Of a stretch of 64,000 bases of DNA, positions 1,004-63,704 are shown piece after piece; the stretch's first letter is position 1, and each line of letters begins with the position of its first letter. A model generated the notes under the pieces. It made no database searches and had not been told where the DNA came from. It was given only the letters and a program-made list of their open reading frames with translations. The DNA is taken from NCBI GenBank assembly GCA_021513695.1, contig CP084166.1, forward strand, positions 1,376,001-1,440,000. The letters run 5' to 3'. This DNA comes from Candidatus Heimdallarchaeum aukensis (GTDB lineage: Archaea; Asgardarchaeota; Heimdallarchaeia; Heimdallarchaeales; Heimdallarchaeaceae). A program made the translations under genes and the position numbers.

Positions 1004-1387
1004 ATGAGTATCTCTGGTCGAGAAATGGAAAAATTGCTACAAGAGTTTTCTGACAATACAGAAGGAGTTTTAGGCTGTTCTATCATCCTTGCAAAAGATG
1101 CTTTAATGTTAGCTGAAATCTCTCAGAAATATGATAGTATGGTAATTCAATGGCTAAGTGAACGTATTTTATCTATGGCAAAAGAATCACTTAAGCAGTT
1201 AATGAACGATTACCAATTACAAAGCGTAACTATTGAAGAAGAAAATCATCTAATTTTTCTGAGACCAGTAGGAACAGAATATTATCTCGTTTTTATTCTA
1301 AATAAGGAAGAAAATAGAGGTTTAATTGAATATAATATAAAAAGACTTCAAAAGAAGTTTAGTAAAGCATTAGGAATACAAGAATAA
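1004..1387 (+). CDS. Roadblock/LC7 (MglB-like) domain protein
   Basis: 127 aa. The N-terminal 'EGVLGCSIILAKDALMLAEIS' and overall alpha/beta pattern are typical of Robl/LC7. GAGGAA sits 8 nt upstream of the ATG. Confidence 0.72.
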   Translation: MSISGREMEKLLQEFSDNTEGVLGCSIILAKDALMLAEISQKYDSMVIQWLSERILSMAKESLKQLMNDYQLQSVTIEEENHLIFLRPVGTEYYLVFILNKEENRGLIEYNIKRLQKKFSKALGIQE

Positions 1388-6655: not shown

Positions 6656-9484
6656 GTGATTGCAATCAAAAAAATTTCTTGTACTATTATTCTTGTTTTA
6701 TTATTAAGTTCAGAGGTATATGGGACAATATATAACAATCAAGCAGAACAAGAAGAAAATAAAGAAAAAATGGATTTTACTAATCTTAAAAACATATTTA
6801 AAGAAAAGCAATTGTTAGAAGAATTCAATAAAGCACCAAGAAATCAAGATTTCAGGTTATTTATCAAACCAAGAAATTATGATTCAAGAATAATTTTACT
6901 TGATAAAGGTAGAAGAGCAAATCCAATTTCAATAGTTAATGGACTTTTTGCAACATATACTAAAGCAGAATTATTAAATTTAATTAATAGAGGTTTAATA
7001 TTTTCTGTCTGGAATAATAGTCAGATCATGATAGCAGATTCTGAAATAAATGTATCATCCTCACTTGTTCAAAACACTGCTAACTTCACAGAAATGATAA
7101 ATACAACAACATTATGGAAAAATAATATTAAAGGAGATAATGTCACAGTAGCTATTCTTGACACGGGGATATTGAAAAATCACCCTGCATTAAACACAAC
7201 ACAAGATGGAAAAAATAGAATTATCGCAACAAGGAATTTTTTTGATGAAGATTCGTATCCAACTGACAACAATGGACATGGTTCAGCATTAGCAGGAATT
7301 ATTGGGAGTAATGGTCTTTTTGGCTATCCTATAGGCGTTTCTCCCAATTGTAATTTCATAATAGGTAAAATCTTGACTAACGAAGGTCAAGGTACATTAG
7401 AAACTTTGCTTTCTGGGATGGATTGGGCAATTAGCCAAGGAGCGGACATTATCAACCTCTCAATAGGAAAAAAAGTTGAAAGCCTTCATGCTCCAGAAAT
7501 AGAAGCAGTAAATAATGCAGTAAATAAAGGTGTAATTGTAGTTAGCGCTGTTGGTAATTCAAGAGGTAAATTAGAATTTGGATATAACTCTAAATACACA
7601 GTTCTTAGCCCTGGAATAGCTAGCAATGTAATAACTGTTGGTGCAATTGATACAAATGAAGTTTTATACGAATTTAGTAGTGGAGGGCCAGTGACTATCA
7701 ATTTTAACGAAACTGAAGGAAAATATCTCTATGATTTCCAAGATGTGGATTACTGGATAAAACCTGATATTGTAGCTCCTGGAGTTAAAATTAATACAAC
7801 AACAAATTCTTTAGATTCAACAAAAATAGTAACAGGTACTAGTTATTCCACTGCTGTAGTATCAGGATTATGTGCGCTAGTTTTATCAAAAAACAAGGAA
7901 TATAAGCCATCAATAATAAAATCAGCAATTTTGAATAGCGCAACGAAATTAGAAAACAACCTAATATTTAGCTCTAATTCAACTATTAAAATAATCCCTG
8001 ATATTTTTTATCAAGGTGCAGGATTAGTTAATGCGGGTCATACTTTAGATGAATTAGAAAACATTCAAGATTTCACAATATGGCCTGCAGATTTTTCATT
8101 TTTAGATAAAAAATTATTCATTAACGAAAAAAAGCAGTTCTATATTAGTTTATTCATAAATAGACCCATTGAACATCTAACAATAAACATTGAGGGAGAT
8201 ATAAATAAAGGATTAACAATAAGCAATTTAGACACTTTAAACTCTAGTTCTATAGGACAATATAACCTTGCTTTTTTGATTGATGGTGAGAAATTTTCTT
8301 CAGGAATTCATAAAGGGGAAATAACCTTTGTCTCATCCGTATTAAACATAACCTTATCTCTACAAATAAATATCATTAATGCAAAAGGAAAGGTTTTAGT
8401 AGACTTTTTTGAGAAAAGTCCTATTGATTATTATTCATTAAAAGGGACTTTAACTAGCCTAGTAAGGACTTTACGAAAATTACAATTAGTTACTTCTTTT
8501 CTTAGAAGAGATATTGAGCAAAGAACATTATCTAGTCTAAACCTTTTAGACTATGATTTAATTATCTTAATCAATCCTAATGGATCTACAGAATTAAGAG
8601 ATTATTACTCAAATAGTGATTTAGAAGCTCTAAAAGACTATGTGCTACCTAGAGGAAATTATAAAGGAGGAAGTCTTTTAATTTTACCTTCACAATCAAG
8701 TGACTTCAATTTTATAGCTAACTTAACAAGTTTATTCAAAATCTCTCTTAGTCAAACAGAAATCGAAGAAGAATTTTTTGAATTTGGTTTCACGACTGGT
8801 CAGTTATTTTCATTTCCCAATGAAATAAGTGAGTTTTATATTCCAAAACCATTCATTGTAAAAGGAGAAAATAGTTCAGTAAAAAATTATGAAAACCGCT
8901 TTGCTTATGTAGATAACAGATATGGTGGAGGTTCACTCGTTTTTGTAGCTAATAACGTTGATATGTTTCTCTCATCTCCATACTTATACTCAACTACTAG
9001 TGAAAAATATATTACAACTCGATTTTCTTCAAAATACGGAAACAATACAAAACTCCTTGAAAACATAGTTTATACATGTAGACCTAATTACATACTGACA
9101 TCCGTTGAAACGGATAAAAAGGAATTCATAAAGAATGAAAAAATAACGTTAAAAATTTCTCTTAAAAATTATCACAAATATATTTCAGGATGGACTTTTA
9201 CTATTACTTTGGAAAATGAACAGACTTACATGGTTCCTTCATTCCAATACGTTGATCTTGAAAATGGTTCATATTTCTTGATTATAGATATAGAAAAGAA
9301 TAATATTAAACCTGGTCATTACTCTTTAGTTGTAAGGTCTTTTGCAGGAAATGAAAAAATTGAGGTAAACATTATAACTAACTTCTCTCTTACTCCAAGA
9401 TTCGTTGAAATTCCTCTCATTGTATGCGTTATTATAATTATATATACCCAAACCAAAAAAAGAAGAGTGAAGATTAAGAAATAG
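6656..9484 (+). CDS. Secreted or surface-anchored subtilisin-like serine protease (peptidase S8) with a long C-terminal extension and a C-terminal TM anchor
   Basis: 942 aa. It has an N-terminal signal peptide (ILVLLLSSEVYG). The catalytic triad motifs are VAILDTGI (Asp), HGSALAGIIGS (His) and GTSYSTAVVSGL (Ser). Many N-x-S/T sequons are present. A C-terminal hydrophobic helix is followed by KKRRVKIKK. Confidence 0.85.
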   Translation: MIAIKKISCTIILVLLLSSEVYGTIYNNQAEQEENKEKMDFTNLKNIFKEKQLLEEFNKAPRNQDFRLFIKPRNYDSRIILLDKGRRANPISIVNGLFATYTKAELLNLINRGLIFSVWNNSQIMIADSEINVSSSLVQNTANFTEMINTTTLWKNNIKGDNVTVAILDTGILKNHPALNTTQDGKNRIIATRNFFDEDSYPTDNNGHGSALAGIIGSNGLFGYPIGVSPNCNFIIGKILTNEGQGTLETLLSGMDWAISQGADIINLSIGKKVESLHAPEIEAVNNAVNKGVIVVSAVGNSRGKLEFGYNSKYTVLSPGIASNVITVGAIDTNEVLYEFSSGGPVTINFNETEGKYLYDFQDVDYWIKPDIVAPGVKINTTTNSLDSTKIVTGTSYSTAVVSGLCALVLSKNKEYKPSIIKSAILNSATKLENNLIFSSNSTIKIIPDIFYQGAGLVNAGHTLDELENIQDFTIWPADFSFLDKKLFINEKKQFYISLFINRPIEHLTINIEGDINKGLTISNLDTLNSSSIGQYNLAFLIDGEKFSSGIHKGEITFVSSVLNITLSLQINIINAKGKVLVDFFEKSPIDYYSLKGTLTSLVRTLRKLQLVTSFLRRDIEQRTLSSLNLLDYDLIILINPNGSTELRDYYSNSDLEALKDYVLPRGNYKGGSLLILPSQSSDFNFIANLTSLFKISLSQTEIEEEFFEFGFTTGQLFSFPNEISEFYIPKPFIVKGENSSVKNYENRFAYVDNRYGGGSLVFVANNVDMFLSSPYLYSTTSEKYITTRFSSKYGNNTKLLENIVYTCRPNYILTSVETDKKEFIKNEKITLKISLKNYHKYISGWTFTITLENEQTYMVPSFQYVDLENGSYFLIIDIEKNNIKPGHYSLVVRSFAGNEKIEVNIITNFSLTPRFVEIPLIVCVIIIIYTQTKKRRVKIKK

Positions 9485-9854
9485 CGTTTCTTATATCAGA
9501 AGCATATCTTGCTAGAACTTGCATGGATAATGCAAGACTGTAGATTTCTCTTGAAGCTGCTAAAGTTATTACTTCTCCAGTATTTTGGAGTATGACAAAA
9601 CCCTCTCTTCCTTTTATAATAACTTGGTCTAATTCTCCATACTTTAATTGGGTGACAGTTTGCATTCCTGCAGCATTCAAAGCAGAAGCTAAAGCTGCCA
9701 TAATAACTGAATCAGTTCCTTGTTCTGCAAAAAAAGCTAATTCTTGTCCTTCTGAGGTTACTACTGCTATAGCACCAAGATCACATTTCTTTGTTATCTG
9801 TTTAAGTATCTGAATTACTGCTTTTTTTTGTTCGGGTGTTAAATCTGTAATCAT
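9474..9854 (-). CDS. Roadblock/LC7 (MglB-like) domain protein
   Basis: 126 aa. The pattern 'LGAIAVVTSEGQELAFFAE...' shows Robl-like alternation and has the length typical of the family. Confidence 0.72.
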   Translation of the reverse strand: MITDLTPEQKKAVIQILKQITKKCDLGAIAVVTSEGQELAFFAEQGTDSVIMAALASALNAAGMQTVTQLKYGELDQVIIKGREGFVILQNTGEVITLAASREIYSLALSMQVLARYASDIRNAIS

Positions 9855-9931
9855 TGTTAAATAATAGATAAATCACTATTAAAAACTCTTTGCTTGAAAA
9901 GGATATTTTAAATTAGAGATTAAAGTGTTAA

Positions 9932-10591
9932 CTAAAAAATACGAGAACTATGGGTATTACAGACAGGCGTAAATACATCTTCCACAATTCCATTATGTTC
10001 ATACTTCCAATTGTTTAGAAACTTTGCTTCTTTTCCACAGATATAACATTTTCTTGGCCTGTCAAGTGGTTTTCTAATCCTTGATTTTCTATTCCAATAA
10101 ACTTGAAATTCTTCTACTTTCTTTGTAAATTTATCTAACATTTTCTGTGCATTTTCTGATTCATTTGGTTTCACACCGGTAGTAAAAACAATCCAGCTCC
10201 ATACAACGATTGTTAAGATATTTTTGAAAGATTTAATTGGAATCTTTGTAAAACCACTGATCATTATTTCCCTATATGTATCATGAACTCTGAAGTCAAG
10301 CCTTACTTCTTTTTTGGTATATTGATCACCAAAATCTAAATCATATTTTTCTTTAATTCGGATTAGTCTTTTACCAATTTCAGAAAACAACCAATCAACA
10401 GTATTCCAGCTTCCTTTTCTTTTTAATTCCAAGAACTTTATTCTAACATTTGGGTAAGATATCGAAATAAACAGTTCATTTACAGCACTGTTAGCCTTTC
10501 TTACCAAGTATTCGTAAATTCCTACCGGGAATTCTAGTGATTTTTCTAGGTGCACTGGAATCACTCTAGAATTAGAACACGTTTTTTTCAC
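9932..10591 (-). CDS. Hypothetical protein with a C-terminal Cys/His zinc-binding motif
   Basis: 219 aa. The C-terminal motif is 'CYICGKEAKF...HNG...CNTHS'. It has no P-loop. It lies 77 nt upstream of the roadblock gene on the same strand. Confidence 0.35.
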   Translation of the reverse strand: MKKTCSNSRVIPVHLEKSLEFPVGIYEYLVRKANSAVNELFISISYPNVRIKFLELKRKGSWNTVDWLFSEIGKRLIRIKEKYDLDFGDQYTKKEVRLDFRVHDTYREIMISGFTKIPIKSFKNILTIVVWSWIVFTTGVKPNESENAQKMLDKFTKKVEEFQVYWNRKSRIRKPLDRPRKCYICGKEAKFLNNWKYEHNGIVEDVFTPVCNTHSSRIF

Positions 10592-39641: not shown

Positions 39642-40676
39642 ATGAAAGAAGGTAAACTACCAATTCCAAAACTTAACGAGATACTAGCGCTAAAAGGAGC
39701 AAAAAATGATGGCATAATCTCTGCGGGAATAATTGGTCATGATGTGGCAGTAATTGATATTCAGTCAGCAAAGCAAAATGCATTGAAGTTTTATGACAGT
39801 AAATCAGAGGTTTTGTTAGTAGAAAAATCAGATCCCATCACTTTTCCTACTCCAAACCCAGGATACTATTCTGTTATAGTAAATTCTAATGACATTGCTT
39901 GCTCAGGGGGAGTACCTTATGGTTTTTTGATCACAATTATTGCTCCTCCAGATACAACTTTTGATAAAATCAAAGCAATTCAAAAAGAAATCCACAGACA
40001 GTGTGAAAAATTTGATATTAGTATCCTTGGCGGACATACTGAAATATCGCAATCTGTAAACACAATAATTATTTCTGGACATATGATAGGCTTTGTCCCA
40101 AAAGAATTCCTTGTTCCAAATTACTTGTCACCTGGCGATAAGATTATTGCATTAGGTTATTCGGGTAAAGAAGGAACAAATATTTTGATTGAAGAAGCAG
40201 GAGAAGCAATATATGATAAATTTACGAAAAAAGAGATATATGAATGGAAAGAAAGAAATTCAGATATAAGTATTCTTAATATTGCCCTCGAGCTAAATAA
40301 AGAATTTAAGCCAAAACTGCTACATGACCCTACAGAAGGAGGAATTTTTGGCGCATTGTATGAAATTGTTGCTCTAACAAAATTAGGTATTATGTTAGAT
40401 AGACTTCCTCCTCTTTCAGATGTTACAAAAAAACTCTCTGAATGGCTGAATTTTAATCCGTATCGATTAATTTCTTCTGGAGGATTAATTATTGCAGCAG
40501 AAGAGGAAAAAGCATTAAAGATTGTAGAGTTCTTAAAAATGAAAAAATATCCTGTAGAAATGATAGGAACAGTAATAACAAGTGACAAAAAATTAATTTA
40601 CAAAGAAAAAGAAATTCACCCTCCCGAGGGTGATGATATTATTATAGCTCTCAATATTCTTAATAAAAGAAAGTGA
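39642..40676 (+). CDS. AIR-synthase-related (PurM-like) protein; ThiL/HypE-like ATP-binding fold
   Basis: 344 aa. An N-terminal PurM-N-like segment (GHDVAVIDI ... NSNDIACSGGVPYGFLITI) and a C-terminal PurM-C-like segment (HDPTEGGIFGALYE) are present. Confidence 0.55.
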   Translation: MKEGKLPIPKLNEILALKGAKNDGIISAGIIGHDVAVIDIQSAKQNALKFYDSKSEVLLVEKSDPITFPTPNPGYYSVIVNSNDIACSGGVPYGFLITIIAPPDTTFDKIKAIQKEIHRQCEKFDISILGGHTEISQSVNTIIISGHMIGFVPKEFLVPNYLSPGDKIIALGYSGKEGTNILIEEAGEAIYDKFTKKEIYEWKERNSDISILNIALELNKEFKPKLLHDPTEGGIFGALYEIVALTKLGIMLDRLPPLSDVTKKLSEWLNFNPYRLISSGGLIIAAEEEKALKIVEFLKMKKYPVEMIGTVITSDKKLIYKEKEIHPPEGDDIIIALNILNKRK

Positions 40677-40682
40677 TACAGA

Positions 40683-41357
40683 ATGGAGCAAAAAACAAGC
40701 TATAACTATGATTTTTGGGGAGCTGAAGCTGAATTAACAAAAATTAAATGGTTTGGTTTAGAAGCTATAAAAAAGGTGAGAATTTCCAAGAAATATAGAA
40801 TTTCTGAAATTGATGAAATGTTAAGAAAAAAAAGAACAATCACTGAGGCAAAGCTTCTAATTACTGCAAAAAAAGCTAAAGTCCAGACCCCATTCGTATA
40901 TGATGTTGATTCTAAAAAACGAACAATAATTATGGAATTTATTGATGGAACTAAAGTCAAAGATTTTCTGAAATCAGAAGAATTTGATAGTAAAGTCAAA
41001 AGGAAATTAATGGAAGAGATAGGAAAAAAAGTAGGTTTACTTCACGCTAATCATCTGATACATGGAGATTTAACTACTAGCAACATACTTCTCAGAAATA
41101 AAAAGTTAGTATTCATTGATTTTGGTCTCGGAAAGTTCTCAAATGAAATTGAGGATAAGGCAGTTGATGTTCTACTTATGAAAAAATGTCTAACTAGTAC
41201 TCACGCAGAGGATAACAAGGAATACTTCATTTCTTTTCAAAAAGGATATGTATCTAGTTACACCAAAGGTGATGAAATATTAAAACGTGCATTAAAAGTA
41301 GAAGCAAGAGGAAGACATCTAAAAGAAGAGGATGTAATTTCAGAGTATATTTTCTAA
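40683..41357 (+). CDS. bud32: Bud32/PRPK atypical kinase (KEOPS subunit)
   Basis: 224 aa. The catalytic loop is 'LIHGDLTTSNILL' and the DFG-equivalent is 'FIDFGLG'. The N-terminus binds Kae1. The length is typical of archaeal Bud32. Confidence 0.8.
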   Translation: MEQKTSYNYDFWGAEAELTKIKWFGLEAIKKVRISKKYRISEIDEMLRKKRTITEAKLLITAKKAKVQTPFVYDVDSKKRTIIMEFIDGTKVKDFLKSEEFDSKVKRKLMEEIGKKVGLLHANHLIHGDLTTSNILLRNKKLVFIDFGLGKFSNEIEDKAVDVLLMKKCLTSTHAEDNKEYFISFQKGYVSSYTKGDEILKRALKVEARGRHLKEEDVISEYIF

Positions 41358-41362
41358 ATCTA

Positions 41363-42670
41363 CTAACCCCTTTTTCTGATAATTGACAATGAATTTATTT
41401 TTTGTATAATTTTCCATGTTTCTTCTGCATACTTCTCCTGATGTGTCCAATTACCCTCTATTACTCCTTGCTTTGATAATTTTCCTAATTCTTTTCTTAT
41501 TTTTTTGGAAGTCTTACCAACTGGAGCATTAGCTAATTTTGAACCTGGTAAAGGCATAAAAACATGTGCTCTTATTTTTGATCCAATTTTACTAAGGGAT
41601 TTTATTACTTCAATTGATTGGAATTCATCTGCTTCAGTTGCATCTGGTAAACCAAAGATGAAGTCTACAATTGGGATAAAACCAGCATCACGGATATATT
41701 TTATTGCTCTTAAGCCTTCTTCTACTGAATGCCCTCTATGGTACATTCGTAAAATTTTATCACTTCCTGATTGTAATCCAATAGCTATTTTTTTATTTGA
41801 AACTATTTTCTTCAACTTAGTCATAATGCTTTGAGTAACAGTTTCTGGTCTAACTTCTCCAGGAAAAGTTCCAAAAAAGACTCTTTTTATTCCATCAGTA
41901 TTCTTTATTTTTGTTAGTAAATCTATTATTTCCTCTTCATTTGTCTCTTTTGGTTTCTGTGATAAGTATCCAAAGGAATTTGGAGTGATAAACCTTATAT
42001 CATCTAATTTATGTTTTGCCATCCATTGAACTGTCTCCAATATAACATCTGGTGACCTGTGGCGAGTTTTCTTGTTAAATATACTTGGAACTTGACAGAA
42101 TGCACAACCAAAAGAGCAACCTCTTGTAATTTCTAGTGGGGGAAACAACTTTCTTTGTCTTGATATCATAGGGTAATCGTCTAATTTTATTTGTGGAGGA
42201 GAAGGGTTAACAATTAGCTTTTCTTTATCTTCTGCTAGATAAGCTATGCCAGGTGTTGTTTCCAACTTGTCATTATTTAACCATTTTTCCAAAAAAAGAG
42301 AGAATGATAATTCTCCTTCTCCGATAAAAGCATAATCAAATCCAAGCCTTAAAGTGCTCAAGGGATCTCCAGTAGGATGACTTCCTCCAGCAACAAATAT
42401 AATTTTATTCAGATCTTGAGTTTTTAAATTAGAATACAGATCATCCATACTAGAATATATTTTTTCTAGTTGTGCTGTTCTAAAAGAGAAAGCAAATATC
42501 ACTTTATCATATCTTTCTAAATAAGATTGAATCTTCTTGCTGTCAACATCCGATTCAAGTAAAATGTCAAACCCATCTAGTTTTTCATTTTGATCGATTG
42601 AGGCAACTAATGGGGTAATGCTATAGAAATTCTTTTTTTCAAGACTGAAAATAAGAGCTGAATTATTCAA
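41363..42670 (-). CDS. Radical SAM protein with an N-terminal Rossmann/B12-binding-like domain
   Basis: 435 aa. It has 'ITRGCSFGCAFCQV' (CxxxCxxC) and an upstream 'IIFVAGGSHPTGDP' module. The apparent TTG start overlaps the kae1 stop (TTGA). Confidence 0.68.
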   Translation of the reverse strand: MNNSALIFSLEKKNFYSITPLVASIDQNEKLDGFDILLESDVDSKKIQSYLERYDKVIFAFSFRTAQLEKIYSSMDDLYSNLKTQDLNKIIFVAGGSHPTGDPLSTLRLGFDYAFIGEGELSFSLFLEKWLNNDKLETTPGIAYLAEDKEKLIVNPSPPQIKLDDYPMISRQRKLFPPLEITRGCSFGCAFCQVPSIFNKKTRHRSPDVILETVQWMAKHKLDDIRFITPNSFGYLSQKPKETNEEEIIDLLTKIKNTDGIKRVFFGTFPGEVRPETVTQSIMTKLKKIVSNKKIAIGLQSGSDKILRMYHRGHSVEEGLRAIKYIRDAGFIPIVDFIFGLPDATEADEFQSIEVIKSLSKIGSKIRAHVFMPLPGSKLANAPVGKTSKKIRKELGKLSKQGVIEGNWTHQEKYAEETWKIIQKINSLSIIRKRG

Positions 42671-43671
42671 TTTTCATTTCTCCAGTTAACGACTACATCT
42701 TCAACCCTATAATGTTGGTCAATAATTGTTTCTTTTAGAGGAGTAGAATATCCTTGGTTGTACATTATGAGTCCTAACCATGCTATCATTAATCCATTAT
42801 CAATCGCTAAACTCGGTTCTAATCCAAAGAATCTAGCACCATGTGATTCTGCCATAACTTTAAGCATTGCTTTCAATCGATTGTTTGAAGCAACGCCACC
42901 ACATACTAATACTTCATTCTTTTTAGTATGTGCTAAAGCTCTTTCAGTAACTTCAACTAGCATTGCAAAAACCGTTTCTTGCAAACTGTAAGAGAGATCC
43001 TCAAGAGTATATTCCTTTTTTTTGAGTAGCTTAGAAATGTGTGTGAGAATTCCAGAAAAAGACACATCCATTCCTTTTATAACATAAGGGATTGGAATAT
43101 ATTTTGTTCCATTTTCTGCTAATAGCTCGATTACACGACCCATTGGAGCTTTTTTATCGCTTAAACCCGCGTTTCTTCCAAAAACATCCAAACAATTTCC
43201 AACAGGAATATCAATAGTTTCTCCAAAAACGCGATATCTGCCTTCGCTAAAAGCAATTATTTGTGTGTTACCTCCTGATACATACAACACTACAGGATCA
43301 TCCATGTTTCCAACTAGTCGTCCTATCTCCACGTGAGCTATAGGATGATTTACGCCAACTAACGGTTTTTTGTATTTTAGCGCTAGTGTCCTTGCAGCAA
43401 CTGCACCAACCCTAAGGCAGGGACCCAACCCTGGACCCTTTGTAAAAGAGATAATATCTATATTGTCCATAGTAAGTTTAGATGTTTTAAGCGCTTCACT
43501 GATTACTTCTGGAATATTTTTGGCATGGAATTCAGAAGCTTCACGAGGGTGAATACCAGAACCTAAGGGGGGTTTGTAGGTTCTTCTAACATTTGCAAGT
43601 ATATTTCCGTTATTATCTATTATTCCTACACCTAATTTGTCAGCAGAACTTTCAATGCCAAGAGATAACAT
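42667..43671 (-). CDS. kae1: Kae1 / tRNA N6-threonylcarbamoyladenosine synthase (KEOPS catalytic subunit)
   Basis: 334 aa. It has 'MLSLGIESSADKLGVGII', the metal-binding 'HPIAHVE' (HxxxH) and 'VCGGVASN'. Confidence 0.9.
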   Translation of the reverse strand: MLSLGIESSADKLGVGIIDNNGNILANVRRTYKPPLGSGIHPREASEFHAKNIPEVISEALKTSKLTMDNIDIISFTKGPGLGPCLRVGAVAARTLALKYKKPLVGVNHPIAHVEIGRLVGNMDDPVVLYVSGGNTQIIAFSEGRYRVFGETIDIPVGNCLDVFGRNAGLSDKKAPMGRVIELLAENGTKYIPIPYVIKGMDVSFSGILTHISKLLKKKEYTLEDLSYSLQETVFAMLVEVTERALAHTKKNEVLVCGGVASNNRLKAMLKVMAESHGARFFGLEPSLAIDNGLMIAWLGLIMYNQGYSTPLKETIIDQHYRVEDVVVNWRNEN

Positions 43672-44772: not shown

Positions 44773-46017
44773 TTATATTGTTGTTGGAAACTTTGCATAA
44801 GACCTAAACTCTATCCAATCTTCTAAATGTCTATTGATTATATTTTCAATTTCATCCTGGTCTAGTTTTCTTGCAACTGATTCATCTGATGTTAATAGTG
44901 CCATAATATATCTTTCATTTTTGAACTCTAAATCTCGTAATATAAAAATCTCATTTGTTTTTTCTTCGTCGTCTAAAACATATCTTCTTATTCTTAAGAA
45001 AGGTTCTCTCATATTTGCTATCGTTTCTATTGCTTCATAGTATGCATTATGAGATAATTCTTCTAGCTTTTCATTTTTTGAGTACTGGGCAAAACAGATG
45101 TTACTTCTGAAATCATATAAACCAAAAAATTCTGCATTTAAAGTTTCAGCTACTTGTTTTGATGCATTTGCGATATAATCTTGAATCAAACTTATGTTTC
45201 TAAATATGTGCGAGAATGCACCCAATATAGAAGAGCGTATATGAACACTTGTTCTAAAGATTCCTCTTGCAGGATCAAAGGTGGGGACATTAGAATGTAA
45301 ATATTGGACCATTGAGCCAAAGATGGAATTAGCTTTCTCACTTAAAACAAAATCAGGATCAGATTTATGAAAGAATATGGTCCATGGAACATCTAATTTA
45401 AGTTTTTGAGTGACATTAACAATCTGTTTTAAATATTCAAAGCTTTCTTCATATCTATCTTCAGCTTGAACATCTACTACATAGATAATTGTGTCTGTTC
45501 CAATAAAGTACTGTTCAGGATTGTTTAGATAGTCATCTCTATATATTTTCTGTCCTCCTAATTCATGTAGATGAATATCAAGACCAAAAACCTCTAATTT
45601 TCCACGTAAAAGTCCTCTTGTTGGCGTTAGTGCATTCAACTTTTGAAAAAGTAATGAAAAAGCTCCTCTATGTTTCAAGGCTATAGAAAGTGAGGTTTTT
45701 CCTACATTATCAATTCCTGCTAAAATAATTTTAGCTCCAGAGGTTATTTTTTCAGTTTTTTCTACCAATAAAAGTTTGCTTGCAGCTATCCAACTATCTA
45801 TACGCTCTTTTGGAAAAAGTTTTGACAGATCACTATAGTGCTTATTCCACTCTTTTGCTAATTTTTCAATTGTTACCAAACCAAATTTTTCTAGTGATTT
45901 CACCTCACTTTCTCTAATATCTAAGAGAGCTATTACTGGCAAATCAGCTAAATTATCTTCTTTCCTATAATCCTCTTTCAATAGCTTTTCTTTTATATCT
46001 AACACTTTTTTCACCAA
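44773..46017 (-). CDS. Ras-superfamily small GTPase (Arf/Rag-Gtr-like G domain) with N- and C-terminal extensions. The C-terminal extension is possibly a roadblock-like CRD.
   Basis: 414 aa. G1 is 'ILAGIDNVGKTSL'. The switch I Thr lies in 'LTPTRG'. G3 is 'HELGGQ' (WDxGGQ-type). G4 is 'FFHKSD' (HKxD, as in the Rag/Gtr family). About 150 aa follow the G domain. Confidence 0.62.
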   Translation of the reverse strand: MVKKVLDIKEKLLKEDYRKEDNLADLPVIALLDIRESEVKSLEKFGLVTIEKLAKEWNKHYSDLSKLFPKERIDSWIAASKLLLVEKTEKITSGAKIILAGIDNVGKTSLSIALKHRGAFSLLFQKLNALTPTRGLLRGKLEVFGLDIHLHELGGQKIYRDDYLNNPEQYFIGTDTIIYVVDVQAEDRYEESFEYLKQIVNVTQKLKLDVPWTIFFHKSDPDFVLSEKANSIFGSMVQYLHSNVPTFDPARGIFRTSVHIRSSILGAFSHIFRNISLIQDYIANASKQVAETLNAEFFGLYDFRSNICFAQYSKNEKLEELSHNAYYEAIETIANMREPFLRIRRYVLDDEEKTNEIFILRDLEFKNERYIMALLTSDESVARKLDQDEIENIINRHLEDWIEFRSYAKFPTTI

Positions 46018-46193: not shown

Positions 46194-48203
46194 ATGTTTT
46201 TTACGGATAAACAGCAACGAATGGAGAAAAGAAAATTGCGTGCACGTAGATTAAACAAAATACTGTTGATTACATTATTATTAATTACCACTTTTTCGGT
46301 AAGCGTATTAGGAAGAGCATATTTTTCTTCAGTTAGTGATTTTGGAAAGACAGACCTAAGTTATTCGAAAAATAATATCGTAGCTTTTGACACCAATGAA
46401 CCCATAATTGACGGGGATTTGGAATCTTATGAAGGAGAATGGGCTAATGCTACAGTTTATAGTAATATAATAGATGGGATAAATTATACTATTACCTTAA
46501 AAGCCAATGAGACTCATCTTTTCTTTGGTATAAGTTATGAGACTAATTTGTTTGTCTCACTCACAGAAACTAACGCAAGCATTCCTCACACTTGGTATGC
46601 AATTGTCTTTGACAGTAACTTTGACAAAGAATTTGGAACAGAACTTGTTCCTGAAGATACTATTTTGTTTAACTATCAAGAAAAAGATGCAACTGACGCT
46701 ACTTTGAATGGTACAGAAACTAATTCATTGGCTTTGGATGAAGATTTAGGAGGAGAAGATAACACAATAGGTGCTATTCAAACAGATCTTTTTGTTGAAG
46801 AATACACTGTAACAATAGAAATCGCTAAAGAATTAAACTCAGGAGATAAGGAAGGGAATGATATAGCCCTAAACCCAAGCGATGCTATTCTATTTGCTTT
46901 AATTCCATTTGCTAACCATACGGATGTATTCAATAATACCGAGGTTCCTTCATTAGAATGGAATACTTTAAGATTAGAACCCACACAAGAATTCTACACA
47001 TATATAGAAAATACCGAAGATCTGTCAGTAGTAACCTACGTTTCAGATTCAGTAAGAACAAAGAGAGTAGAGTTTAATTCAATAGGAAATATGTTAGAAG
47101 CCTATCAATTAAATTCTCAATTAGCAAATAAGGATAATTTTGAGATTACAACTGAAAATCTCAACGATGTTGATCTATTTATTATGGCAGGAAATCAAAA
47201 ATCCCTAACTTCTAGCCAAATATCTGTTTTACGTTCATATTTGACAAATGGAGGAAGTATACTCCTTATTGCAGATGAAGTGAAAAATGAAAGTTCAATT
47301 AATGAATTCTTACGAATGTTCAATATGGAACTATACAATTCAACACTCTACTCAAACAATACTGCCATCAATGAATCTCTAACTTTTGATCAAACAACAC
47401 TTGCACAACTACAATATTTACAAGAAGATAGTGCTTTTACAGAAACAGAATTCAGTAATATCTTTTACACAGGTACAGCAATAAAAAACATTTCTGCCTA
47501 TGGAGAAACCATTTTATTTGGACAAGATGCTGACTTATATCCGATCCTTTCAAAAGAAGGAGAATTCTTCATCAATTTAGGTGAAAAAACAGGATACAAT
47601 AGCACAGAAGATATTGCGATAAACAATGTGACTTTGCAAACTGCTTTAGAACTAAAATATGGAGGAAAAATGATTGTTTCTGCCTCAGCTGACATGTATA
47701 ATTCATCAAATCTTGTATTTGGTTCAAATAAGATGTTACTGTTGAAAGAGATACAATGGTTACTTAACTTCAGATTCAGAATAAGCTATGAAAACTTTAA
47801 CGTCCCTCAGACAAAAGTTAAAGAGGGAAATCCAATAGAAATGAACATTAGCGTTACAGGAGATAACGATACAGTTCTAGCAAATGTTAAAGTACAAGGA
47901 AGAGTGCTTGTTCTTAAATCAGTTGTTTCTTCTGTTGAACTTAATGCTTCAGAAAACAAAATCGATTTCTATGGACAAATTGTTCCTGAAACTAAAGCTT
48001 CATGGGTTGACATTGAGATACTGATGCACAAAAGAGGATATGGATATAACTACACTGAACTAGTAGAAGTTTTAATTGAAAAACAAATAGAAATTCCTAT
48101 AGCGGTAGATTACGTGTCTTTAATTGTTTTTATAGCTTCCATTGGATTAGCTATAATAGGAATGATAACTATAAGAAGACACAAAATTCAAAAAGAAGAA
48201 TAA
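46194..48203 (+). CDS. Surface or secreted protein with an N-terminal signal/anchor, an N-glycosylation-sequon-rich ectodomain and a C-terminal TM anchor
   Basis: 669 aa. The N-terminus is 'LLITLLLITTFSVSVLG'. More than 20 N-x-S/T sequons are present. The C-terminus is 'VSLIVFIASIGLAIIGMITIRRHK'. Confidence 0.45.
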   Translation: MFFTDKQQRMEKRKLRARRLNKILLITLLLITTFSVSVLGRAYFSSVSDFGKTDLSYSKNNIVAFDTNEPIIDGDLESYEGEWANATVYSNIIDGINYTITLKANETHLFFGISYETNLFVSLTETNASIPHTWYAIVFDSNFDKEFGTELVPEDTILFNYQEKDATDATLNGTETNSLALDEDLGGEDNTIGAIQTDLFVEEYTVTIEIAKELNSGDKEGNDIALNPSDAILFALIPFANHTDVFNNTEVPSLEWNTLRLEPTQEFYTYIENTEDLSVVTYVSDSVRTKRVEFNSIGNMLEAYQLNSQLANKDNFEITTENLNDVDLFIMAGNQKSLTSSQISVLRSYLTNGGSILLIADEVKNESSINEFLRMFNMELYNSTLYSNNTAINESLTFDQTTLAQLQYLQEDSAFTETEFSNIFYTGTAIKNISAYGETILFGQDADLYPILSKEGEFFINLGEKTGYNSTEDIAINNVTLQTALELKYGGKMIVSASADMYNSSNLVFGSNKMLLLKEIQWLLNFRFRISYENFNVPQTKVKEGNPIEMNISVTGDNDTVLANVKVQGRVLVLKSVVSSVELNASENKIDFYGQIVPETKASWVDIEILMHKRGYGYNYTELVEVLIEKQIEIPIAVDYVSLIVFIASIGLAIIGMITIRRHKIQKEE

Positions 48204-50071: not shown

Positions 50072-50148
50072 GACCCTGTAGCTCAGTAGGATAGAGCACC
50101 TGCCTCCTAAGCAGGGGGTCGACGGTTCGAATCCGCCCAGGGTCGCCA
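50072..50148 (+). tRNA. tRNA-Arg (anticodon CCT), with genomically encoded CCA
   Basis: The gene folds as a cloverleaf: 7-bp acceptor GACCCTG/CAGGGTC, D-arm GCTC..GAGC, anticodon stem CCTGC/GCAGG with loop CTCCTAA (U33, CCT, A37), T-loop TTCGAAT, discriminator G, then CCA. The GC-rich 77-nt island stands out against an AT-rich background. Confidence 0.9.
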
Positions 50149-50230: not shown

Positions 50231-50758
50231 ATGCATTATGATAAAATTCCTGTGTTTATTTGCGATTTTCACACATGTAATCCCAAAAAATGCACAGCGA
50301 ATAGAATTTTAAGGTTCAACAAAGCTAAAGAGATAAAAAAGAAAGAAATATCCAAATTTAACATAGTTTTAACTCCTTTTTCGATGACTGCTCTTTCACC
50401 CGCAGATAAGAAACAAGCTAAGAAATATGGTATAGTAGGTGTTGATTGCAGTTGGAATAATATAGAATCAGGAAGGGAAGCTTTAACTAGAGGAACAGGA
50501 AGAGCTTTACCATACCTTGTACCTGCAAATCCAATAAACTATGGAAAGCCAACAAAGTTAAGCACTTTAGAAGCAATTGCTGCAGCATTAATAATTTTAG
50601 GCAATGTAGAGCAAGCAGAAGAAATTTTAAAACTTGAAAAGTGGGGATTTGAGTTTTATAAAATTAATAAAAAATATTTAGATCTATACTCTCAAGCAAA
50701 AACAAGTAAAGAAATTGTAGAAATACAATCACAGATCATTTCTGAATTAAAAAAATAA
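50231..50758 (+). CDS. tsr3: Tsr3-like 16S/18S rRNA aminocarboxypropyltransferase (DUF367)
   Basis: 175 aa. The N-terminus 'FICDFHTCNPKKCTANRIL' matches the Tsr3 'D.H.cdPkkCTg.kL' signature. Confidence 0.58.
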   Translation: MHYDKIPVFICDFHTCNPKKCTANRILRFNKAKEIKKKEISKFNIVLTPFSMTALSPADKKQAKKYGIVGVDCSWNNIESGREALTRGTGRALPYLVPANPINYGKPTKLSTLEAIAAALIILGNVEQAEEILKLEKWGFEFYKINKKYLDLYSQAKTSKEIVEIQSQIISELKK

Positions 50759-63005: not shown

Positions 63006-63704
63006 GGGTGTGCGGGAATACCCCTGATTCTGTTCGGAAGTCATTTACATGAAACTTCTTAGCAACATTCATCTATGCGCTTTACCCGACTTAGAAAGTC
63101 CTATTTAAGCTTGCACCACGATGTATGATCGTTTCATCGCTCCCTCTTTACTCCTCAATAACTTCATAGGACACCCTATGTGTCATATCATTGTCAACGT
63201 AAAGAGGACGTGTCGTTTCTATTTCAGGGACCACGTTCTCACGTGATGGGTTTGCACCCATATCGCTTGTTAGGTGTCAGGAGGTTCCTCAGGTTTAACC
63301 CGAAAGTTGCTCTCCCGCTCACCCTAAGAGTACTATGTTTTTATCAAAAATAAAGATAGCTGTCACAGATTGCTGACATTCTCTCACGCTAAAGCGTGGG
63401 AGGTTCTTGATTCTACAGAGAGAAGCAAAGGGCGTGCCACCGCCCCGTTAATGACTCCCGCAGGGAAACGTTCACCCTGAGCGAGACCTATATTTAAACA
63501 ACCTACAGCGTCTCTATGGGGCTCTAAGCCACAATCAAGACATTTGAATAATCTTTTTCTTTTGAATACGTGCGTAGAACGACAACGGGGGCAAATAGAG
63601 GAACTGTGTGCTTCTATAACTTCTTTTACGCTTATACCGTATTCTTCTGCCTTTGCTTTGATTCTCGTAACGAGATAATTATGACTCCAAAAATTGTGTA
63701 CCAT
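63006..63704 (-). mobile_element. Remnant of an IS200/IS605-family element: tnpB 3' fragment plus a GC-rich downstream (right-end / possible omega-RNA) region
   Basis: An abrupt GC-rich block of about 700 bp (about 50% GC by eye) lies in about 30% GC surroundings. Hairpins occur at the tnpB stop, e.g. ctctcacgc-taaa-gcgtgggag at 63381..63402 and tgtca-cagattgc-tgaca at 63361..63378. Confidence 0.4.
63384..63704 (-). pseudogene. tnpB: Truncated TnpB (IS200/IS605 OrfB) gene: only the C-terminal RuvC-III / zinc-ribbon part is present
   Basis: 106-aa ORF. 'RIKAKAEEYGISVKEVIEAHSSSICPRCRSTHVFKRKRLFKCLDCGLEPHRDAVGCLNIGL' fits the TnpB C-terminal pattern (..TSqtC..CG...R.f.C..CG...dRD.NAa.NI). Stops occur within 8 codons upstream of the Met, and the AT-rich 5' flank does not code. 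Confidence 0.6.

Follow-up and report, generated by a model that had tools for sequence, protein, structure and literature searches.

A B12-domain radical SAM gene of the TIGR04013 family overlaps kae1 in Candidatus Heimdallarchaeum aukensis and follows it throughout one Heimdall clade

The window analysed here is a 64-kb stretch of Candidatus Heimdallarchaeum aukensis DNA, and all coordinates are positions in it unless a locus of another genome is named. On its minus strand kae1, the gene for the catalytic subunit of the KEOPS synthase of N6-threonylcarbamoyladenosine (t6A), a tRNA modification of universal occurrence, shares four nucleotides with the start of a gene for a radical S-adenosylmethionine (SAM) protein with a B12-binding domain. 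This protein is clearly an additional member of TIGR04013, an already catalogued family of unassigned function, and in all 13 sampled genomes of its own clade the gene is found after kae1. We give a probability of about 0.4 to the reading that the protein is a B12-dependent radical C-methylase with a tRNA substrate.

Results

The kae1/radical SAM junction

The genes and the overlap discussed below are as follows.

42667..43671, minus strand: kae1, catalytic subunit of the KEOPS t6A synthase, 334 aa (TIGR03722, 465 bits, cutoff 375; PF00814, 260 bits)
41363..42670, minus strand: radical SAM gene with B12-binding domain, TIGR04013 family, 435 aa (TIGR04013, PF04055 and PF02310)
42667..42670, minus strand: TTGA stop/start overlap of kae1 and the radical SAM gene (read from the sequence)
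40683..41357, plus strand: bud32, KEOPS kinase/ATPase, 224 aa (TIGR03724, 221 bits, cutoff 125)
39642..40676, plus strand: AIRS/HypE-like gene of the PurM superfamily, 344 aa (matches to PF00586 and PF02769)
31391..31927, plus strand: cgi121, KEOPS subunit, 178 aa (PF08617, 69 bits; NF011465, 82 bits, cutoff 40)

kae1 is the first gene of the pair. Its TGA stop codon and the TTG start codon of the radical SAM gene share the 4 nt TTGA at 42667-42670; the minus strand reads ...AAT GAA AAT TGA at the junction, and the TTG is made up of the last T of AAT and the TG of the stop. A GGAG sequence lies 9 nt 5' of this start. TTG is the most upstream start possible in the frame, the next canonical start codon occurs only at residue 75, and alignments with homologues and with the TIGR04013 model begin at about residue 7 or earlier; the overlap is therefore considered genuine. 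It suggests that the two genes are translationally coupled. They would form a two-gene operon in which translation of the radical SAM gene is coupled to termination of kae1, convergent with a second operon composed of the AIRS-like gene and bud32.

The original prediction for this DNA had placed bud32, the radical SAM gene and kae1 at these positions and had pointed out the TTGA overlap. The gene calls are borne out by profile matches above curated cutoffs, and the start at the overlap by the homologue alignments. It had also described bud32 as divergent from the minus-strand pair, which is incorrect: bud32 and the radical SAM gene converge, and 5 nt separate their stop codons (41357 and 41363). 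The AIRS/HypE-like gene had been overlooked. It lies 6 nt 5' of bud32 and belongs to a conserved block of four genes (AIRS-like, bud32, radical SAM and kae1).

Conservation of the linkage

A scan with one genome per species found a TIGR04013 relative in at least 585 species, and 80 genome loci were kept; a second sample consisted of 80 metagenome loci of the core clade. kae1 is located directly 5' of the radical SAM gene in 13/13 Heimdall-clade loci. Across these loci identity to the window proteins is 50-56% for the radical SAM protein and 72-77% for Kae1, and the junction, counted from the first possible start codon, varies between a 13-nt overlap and a 5-nt gap. bud32 and the AIRS-like gene have the same convergent arrangement in all 11 of the 11 loci whose contig reaches past the radical SAM gene. 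Kae1/TsaD-like sequences were found within 8 kb of the radical SAM gene in 0/67 of the other genome loci and 0/80 of the metagenome loci. Given this absence from the 67 and 80 other loci, the linkage is traced to a single evolutionary event: it is ancient within one Heimdall lineage and has a single origin.

No two of the 80 genome loci listed share an assembly, and the description of TIGR04013 gives one copy per genome. The only named Methanococcales among the listed matches are Methanocaldococcus species, at 83-100% identity (also L016 and L032). The next relatives of the Methanocaldococcus protein are a metagenomic clade (about 64% identity); Loki-type archaea and bacteria come after it, at 57-61%. 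These relationships suggest cross-domain horizontal transfer of the radical SAM gene.

Family, architecture and fold of the radical SAM protein

The protein scores 399.2 bits against TIGR04013 (cutoff 251), residues 7-408 aligning with positions 2-382 of the 382 in the model, and is far below the cutoffs of all other class B models. Matches to PF04055 (88 bits, residues 180-348) and PF02310 (37.7 bits, cutoff 32.1, residues 32-124) account for the radical SAM and B12-binding domains. TIGR04013 is named 'B12_SAM_MJ_1487' and bears the NCBI label 'hypothetical equivalog'; a 100% identical NCBI protein, from a Candidatus Heimdallarchaeota metagenome-assembled genome (MAG; P0001), already carries the TIGR04013 name. 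The classification thus places the protein in TIGR04013 and not in a well-defined family unrelated to RNA.

A Rossmann cobalamin-type domain (residues ~1-130) is followed by a TIM-barrel-like radical SAM core and a C-terminal helical region. There are exactly three cysteines, C185, C189 and C192, all of them in the CxxxCxxC motif; therefore a single Fe-S cluster, the [4Fe-4S] cluster of radical SAM enzymes, is expected, with neither an N-terminal cysteine triad nor an auxiliary cluster. Just these three cysteines are invariant in the family alignment, as are S62 and G95-G96-x-H98 in the Rossmann domain. The median isoelectric point of the family is 8.8.

The AlphaFold2 model, calculated with 56 homologues, has a pLDDT (predicted local distance difference test) of 92.8 and a pTM (predicted template modelling score) of 0.89. 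In it the Rossmann domain is packed against the radical SAM barrel, as in class B methyltransferases. The top PDB fold match is MgmA (9CCB), with a template modelling (TM) score of 0.68-0.70, the next are CysS and TokK, and MiaB, TsrM and OxsB follow; E values for MgmA, CysS, TokK, TsrM and OxsB range from 1e-21 to 1e-15. A class B type of architecture is very likely. The predicted fold and the domain layout favour class B radical SAM chemistry, the simplest form of which would be methylation at an unactivated carbon, and C-methyltransferase chemistry is probable.

By sequence match, the only solved piece of the family is 4Q37, an N-terminal domain. The 107-aa 4Q37 fragment gave only 2 matches when used as a query; on L081, whose partial homologue is the relative nearest to 4Q37 in the database, the genes 5' of this homologue have no Pfam match. 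TM0182 is a locus tag of Thermotoga maritima. A 2025 review reports that N-TM0182, the isolated cobalamin-binding domain of a radical SAM enzyme dependent on cobalamin, has been solved, and the structure is without bound cobalamin (PMC13331322). We equate this structure with PDB 4Q37 by inference. A 2026 review of B12 radical SAM enzymes places 4Q37 among enzymes of other or unknown transformation.

Comparison with known enzymes

The window protein and other TIGR04013 members, such as MJ1487 of Methanocaldococcus jannaschii and TM0182 of T. maritima, have the same two domains, the CxxxCxxC motif, and motifs specific to the family, among them FP(S/G)EVRPE and RFITPN. They differ in that the window clade forms a long separate branch, with 33-37% identity to other clades, whereas the core clades share 45-55% (distance matrix and neighbour-joining tree), and in that the window clade alone has the gene after kae1. 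All clades tested are still above the TIGR04013 cutoff.

MgmA (also QCMT; TIGR04014) is a B12-dependent radical SAM glutamine C-methyltransferase that acts on methyl-coenzyme M reductase (MCR). Its structure, 9CCB, is the top sequence match among solved structures (122 bits, profile E = 2e-34), and in both proteins the radical SAM core comes after an N-terminal Rossmann cobalamin domain. The window protein is not itself MgmA, scoring 98.9 bits against TIGR04014 where the cutoff is 360. The distributions also differ. MgmA is confined to organisms encoding MCR or related alkyl-coenzyme M reductases, whereas members of TIGR04013 are found in Asgard archaea, in Bathyarchaeia and Desulfurococcales, and in many anaerobic bacteria.

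TokK and CysS, iterative cobalamin-dependent sp3 C-methyltransferases, resemble the model with TM scores of about 0.65. Sequence identity is 16-19%, both have extra C-terminal domains, and their substrates are antibiotic precursors and not RNA.

MiaB, MtaB and RimO have a related radical SAM core, which is reflected in the TIGR00089 score of 90.8 bits, in fold matches to MiaB, and in an R-x-R-S motif after the cluster loop; the substrate of MtaB is t6A at tRNA position 37 (t6A37). Identity with any of the three is rejected. The window protein has no cysteine before C185, no TRAM domain was matched in the domain scan, and scores fall short of the cutoffs both for TIGR00089 (251) and for the MtaB model (70.8 bits, cutoff 357). 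The original prediction had excluded an MtaB-type methylthiotransferase from the missing N-terminal triad alone, and the conclusion agrees.

In MjCyc, 29% identity is the basis for proposing MJ1487 as a dimethylbenzimidazole synthase similar to BzaE (PMC11742838). A BzaD or BzaE identity is rejected from the score of the Methanocaldococcus protein against TIGR04385 (BzaD), 43.6 bits where the cutoff is 450, a test based on the BzaD model, no BzaE-specific model having been seen. TIGR04385 is not among the model matches listed for the window protein.

Gene neighbourhoods elsewhere in the family

Several neighbourhoods outside the window clade contain genes for tRNA modification or translation. 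TYW1 (363 bits) is found 4-91 nt 3' of the radical SAM gene and on the same strand in 4 Thor-clade loci (L061, with the pair at 7986-9266 and 9357-10328, and also L071, L072 and L073), all in Thorarchaeota-labelled MAGs that form a second long-branch clade; the pair is flanked by genes for a proteasome beta subunit and a translin-like protein. TYW1 is 4-demethylwyosine synthase and also modifies position 37 of tRNA. A TtuA-like PP-loop (tRNA thiolase) gene adjoins the radical SAM gene in Anaerolineae, and genes for tyrosyl- and aspartyl-tRNA synthetases adjoin it in Desulfurococcales. The order ileS-lspA-radical SAM is found in 4 Nitrospirota loci, and a methionyl-tRNA synthetase gene, the radical SAM gene and the gene for aRF1 are consecutive in one archaeal locus (L047).

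In about 50 Loki-type loci the gene is monocistronic between genes on the opposite strand. In one further clade it is accompanied by a gene for a ~400-aa protein with two N-terminal transmembrane helices and HEAT-like repeats, which matched no Pfam or NCBIfam family and is apparently an obligate partner of the radical SAM protein in that clade. Loci with this partner gene are listed here.

L083, 5401-6603: HEAT-like partner gene
L015, 1989-3191: HEAT-like partner gene
L027, L084-L087, L126, L130 and L154: HEAT-like partner gene also present

A set of genes in Thermodesulfobacteria (racemase, aminotransferase and radical SAM) was considered as a possible operon for hydroxynorvaline synthesis and rejected: the first two are ordinary murI and argD.

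Other KEOPS genes and the AIRS-like gene

Kae1, Bud32 and Cgi121 of KEOPS are all encoded in the window, each scoring above a curated cutoff. cgi121 lies 9 kb from the bud32/radical SAM/kae1 group, at the location given by the original prediction, and starts 4 nt after the gene for a 507-aa Glycos_transf_3/PYNP_C protein, which is AMP-phosphorylase-like. In none of the related loci was it detected within 8 kb of the radical SAM gene. Pcc1 had been noted as missing, and no match to it was obtained among the small open reading frames (ORFs) of the window that were scanned (at least 55 aa); the Pcc1 and Pcc2 genes may be located outside the 64-kb window.

The AIRS-like gene is present in 11/11 related loci that show bud32, although in 2 of these it is partial at the contig end. 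Its product scores 84 bits against the HypE model (cutoff 252) and 59 bits against the ThiL model (cutoff 184) and, because both scores are below cutoff, is neither HypE nor ThiL. It is 24% identical to true ThiL, and its best PDB match is the HypE structure 3VTI (50 bits). A link to thiamine was considered, as ThiL and ThiN genes adjoin the radical SAM gene in Bathyarchaeia and in a Desulfurococcaceae MAG, and was rejected: the AIRS-like protein is not ThiL and the association is not recurrent.

The closest parallel is the HypF-HypE pair of [NiFe]-hydrogenase maturation. The top model and the top PDB matches of the AIRS-like protein are HypE, but the protein is below the HypE cutoff and is without a C-terminal cysteine (it ends ...NILNKRK). 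HypF contains Sua5/YrdC-like and Kae1-like domains, and its pairing with HypE is echoed by a HypE-like gene that adjoins KEOPS genes. By analogy, the HypE-like, ATP-dependent enzyme encoded with the KEOPS genes may act on a carbamoyl or t6A-type intermediate.

Further features of the window

The only tRNA gene in the window is that for tRNA-Arg(CCU), at 50072-50148 on the plus strand. This tRNA decodes an ANN codon, and t6A is therefore expected in it. Just 3' of it, at 50231-50758 on the plus strand, is a gene for a Tsr3-like rRNA aminocarboxypropyltransferase (Ribo_biogen_C and Fer4_RLI domains).

Eukaryote-like Asgard signature genes are located at 44773-46017 (minus), 1004-1387 (plus), 9474-9854 (minus) and 46194-48203 (plus); the signature products are a Gtr1/RagA-family GTPase, two Roadblock/LC7 proteins and a protein with an IFT52 GIFT-like domain. 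A 106-aa ORF at 63384-63704 (minus) matches the Cas12f1-like/TnpB TNB zinc ribbon and probably represents part of a transposon-associated nuclease gene. In the translation of 33399-34250 (minus), a 283-aa protein, the motif HTHPGYGCFLSGTD reads as a JAMM/MPN+ metalloprotease motif, and a hydrophobic tail is present at the C-terminus.

Discussion

A tRNA methylase reading

As a B12-dependent radical C-methylase of tRNA, the protein would follow the usual class B mechanism and use two molecules of SAM. The first would methylate cob(I)alamin. The second would be cleaved to give a 5'-deoxyadenosyl radical that abstracts hydrogen from an unactivated carbon, and the substrate radical would take its methyl group from methylcobalamin. 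The substrate must be one that exists in both archaea and anaerobic bacteria. A candidate is t6A37, the product of Kae1, which differs from hydroxynorvalylcarbamoyl-adenosine (hn6A) by one methyl on the threonyl gamma-carbon. Methylation of the threonyl gamma-methyl group, with t6A37 already on the tRNA, would give hn6A, and a second round of methylation could give the 'methyl-hn6A' reported in Methanopyrus and Stetteria. TokK and CysS extend methyl to ethyl groups, which is formally the same chemistry as the conversion of t6A to hn6A.

The suggestion of the original prediction that the radical SAM enzyme takes part in a related tRNA or RNA modification step stands as a lead. It is favoured by the linkage, which is conserved in every Heimdall-clade genome in which it was sought (13/13), by tRNA-related neighbours scattered over other lineages, and by the basic median isoelectric point of the family (8.8). 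Several observations weigh against it. The linkage is limited to a single clade and is found at 0/147 other family loci. A tRNA- or translation-related neighbour is present in ~6-8 of ~40 synteny classes, where ~2-5 would be expected by chance on the author's rough estimate, so that the enrichment is modest and suggestive. Unrelated contexts are also found: murI-argD in Thermodesulfobacteria, ThiL in Bathyarchaeia, ThiN, NadE, PyrB/PyrI, and glycosyl hydrolases and transferases. In one clade the start of the gene for the HEAT-like partner typically overlaps the radical SAM stop codon by 4 nt and, in a few loci, by more. MgmA, the nearest characterised relative, methylates a protein and not RNA.

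The specific proposal that TIGR04013 enzymes are hn6A synthases, converting t6A to hn6A, is speculative and on balance unlikely. hn6A has been on record since 1992, and the literature still gives the origin of its biosynthesis as unknown (PMC7430679, PMC10702137). The only bacteria described as having hn6A are T. maritima and Thermodesulfobacterium commune (PMC6313347). Reports of hn6A also exist for M. acetivorans, Methanococcoides burtonii, Stetteria hydrogenophila and M. kandleri, whereas E. coli, B. subtilis, H. volcanii, P. furiosus and S. acidocaldarius are negative or without such a report. The TIGR04013 family is present in T. maritima, as TM0182, and in the genus Thermodesulfobacterium (L041, L050 and P0081), and it is also found in M. 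jannaschii, which carries hn6A37. Other observations count against the proposal. The t6A machinery of E. coli and of T. maritima can make hn6A in vitro directly from free hydroxynorvaline (PMC7430679). Methanococcus maripaludis, tabulated with hn6A37, is a possible counter-example, the call being mass-based and hn6A isobaric with m6t6A, and Thermococcus kodakarensis has ms2hn6A. With a Methanocaldococcus query, no homologue named as Methanococcus, Methanotorris or Thermococcus was found among the 120 best matches, all of which have at least 55% identity. No prior report of the kae1/radical SAM overlap, or of a link between hn6A and a cobalamin radical SAM enzyme, was found in the literature on hn6A, MJ1487/TIGR04013 and Asgard KEOPS.

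Alternative explanations

It is conceivable, though somewhat unlikely, that the protein acts on a small molecule, a cofactor or a lipid unrelated to t6A and that its place after kae1 is an inherited accident of gene order. The restriction of the linkage to one clade would be explained, as would the neighbours found elsewhere (ThiL, a ThiN-domain protein, NadE, PyrB/PyrI and murI-argD) and, in one clade, the tightly coupled HEAT-like partner with its two transmembrane helices. Many class B radical SAM enzymes in the NCBIfam match list act on cofactors and lipids, and the BzaE-like proposal for MJ1487 (PMC11742838) points the same way. However, the BzaD model gives the Methanocaldococcus protein only 44 bits against a cutoff of 450, and no cofactor or lipid operon recurs across the lineages sampled. 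An accident of gene order also fits poorly with a kae1 junction that is kept in all 13 clade genomes while identity of the radical SAM protein to that of the window has fallen to 50-56%, and with the recurrence of tRNA-related neighbours in unrelated lineages.

A protein C-methylase of the MgmA kind, with a target in the translation apparatus or in KEOPS (a ribosomal protein, a translation factor, Kae1 or Bud32), is an unlikely explanation. By sequence (9CCB, 122 bits) as well as by fold (TM score 0.68-0.70) the best match is MgmA/QCMT, the next sequence match is RimO, which is a ribosomal-protein methylthiotransferase, and the neighbours include aRF1, tRNA synthetases, the proteasome beta subunit and KEOPS subunits. 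Nevertheless, the MgmA model TIGR04014 gives only 99 bits against a cutoff of 360, and tRNA, rather than protein, is the substrate of the TYW1 and TtuA-like neighbours. C-methylated residues matching the cross-domain distribution of the family are not known from any protein that bacteria and archaea have in common, although no search aimed at them was made.

Methylation of free threonine, or of a precursor, to hydroxynorvaline that Sua5 and Kae1 then load onto tRNA is highly improbable: free hydroxynorvaline is a toxic threonine analogue, the amino-acid-looking operon of Thermodesulfobacteria is the ordinary murI-argD, and no sua5/tsaC linkage was seen in the loci examined for Kae1-like sequences (no search was aimed at sua5 itself), although co-expression with kae1 fits a supplier role and T. 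maritima TsaC2 and TsaD accept hydroxynorvaline from a source that is unknown (PMC7430679).

Significance

TIGR04013 is a widespread orphan family, present in at least 585 species, of which a structural piece has been solved and to which no function has been assigned. If the link to t6A fails, what is described here is a clade-specific gene order around a catalogued family member. [quoted passage not shown]

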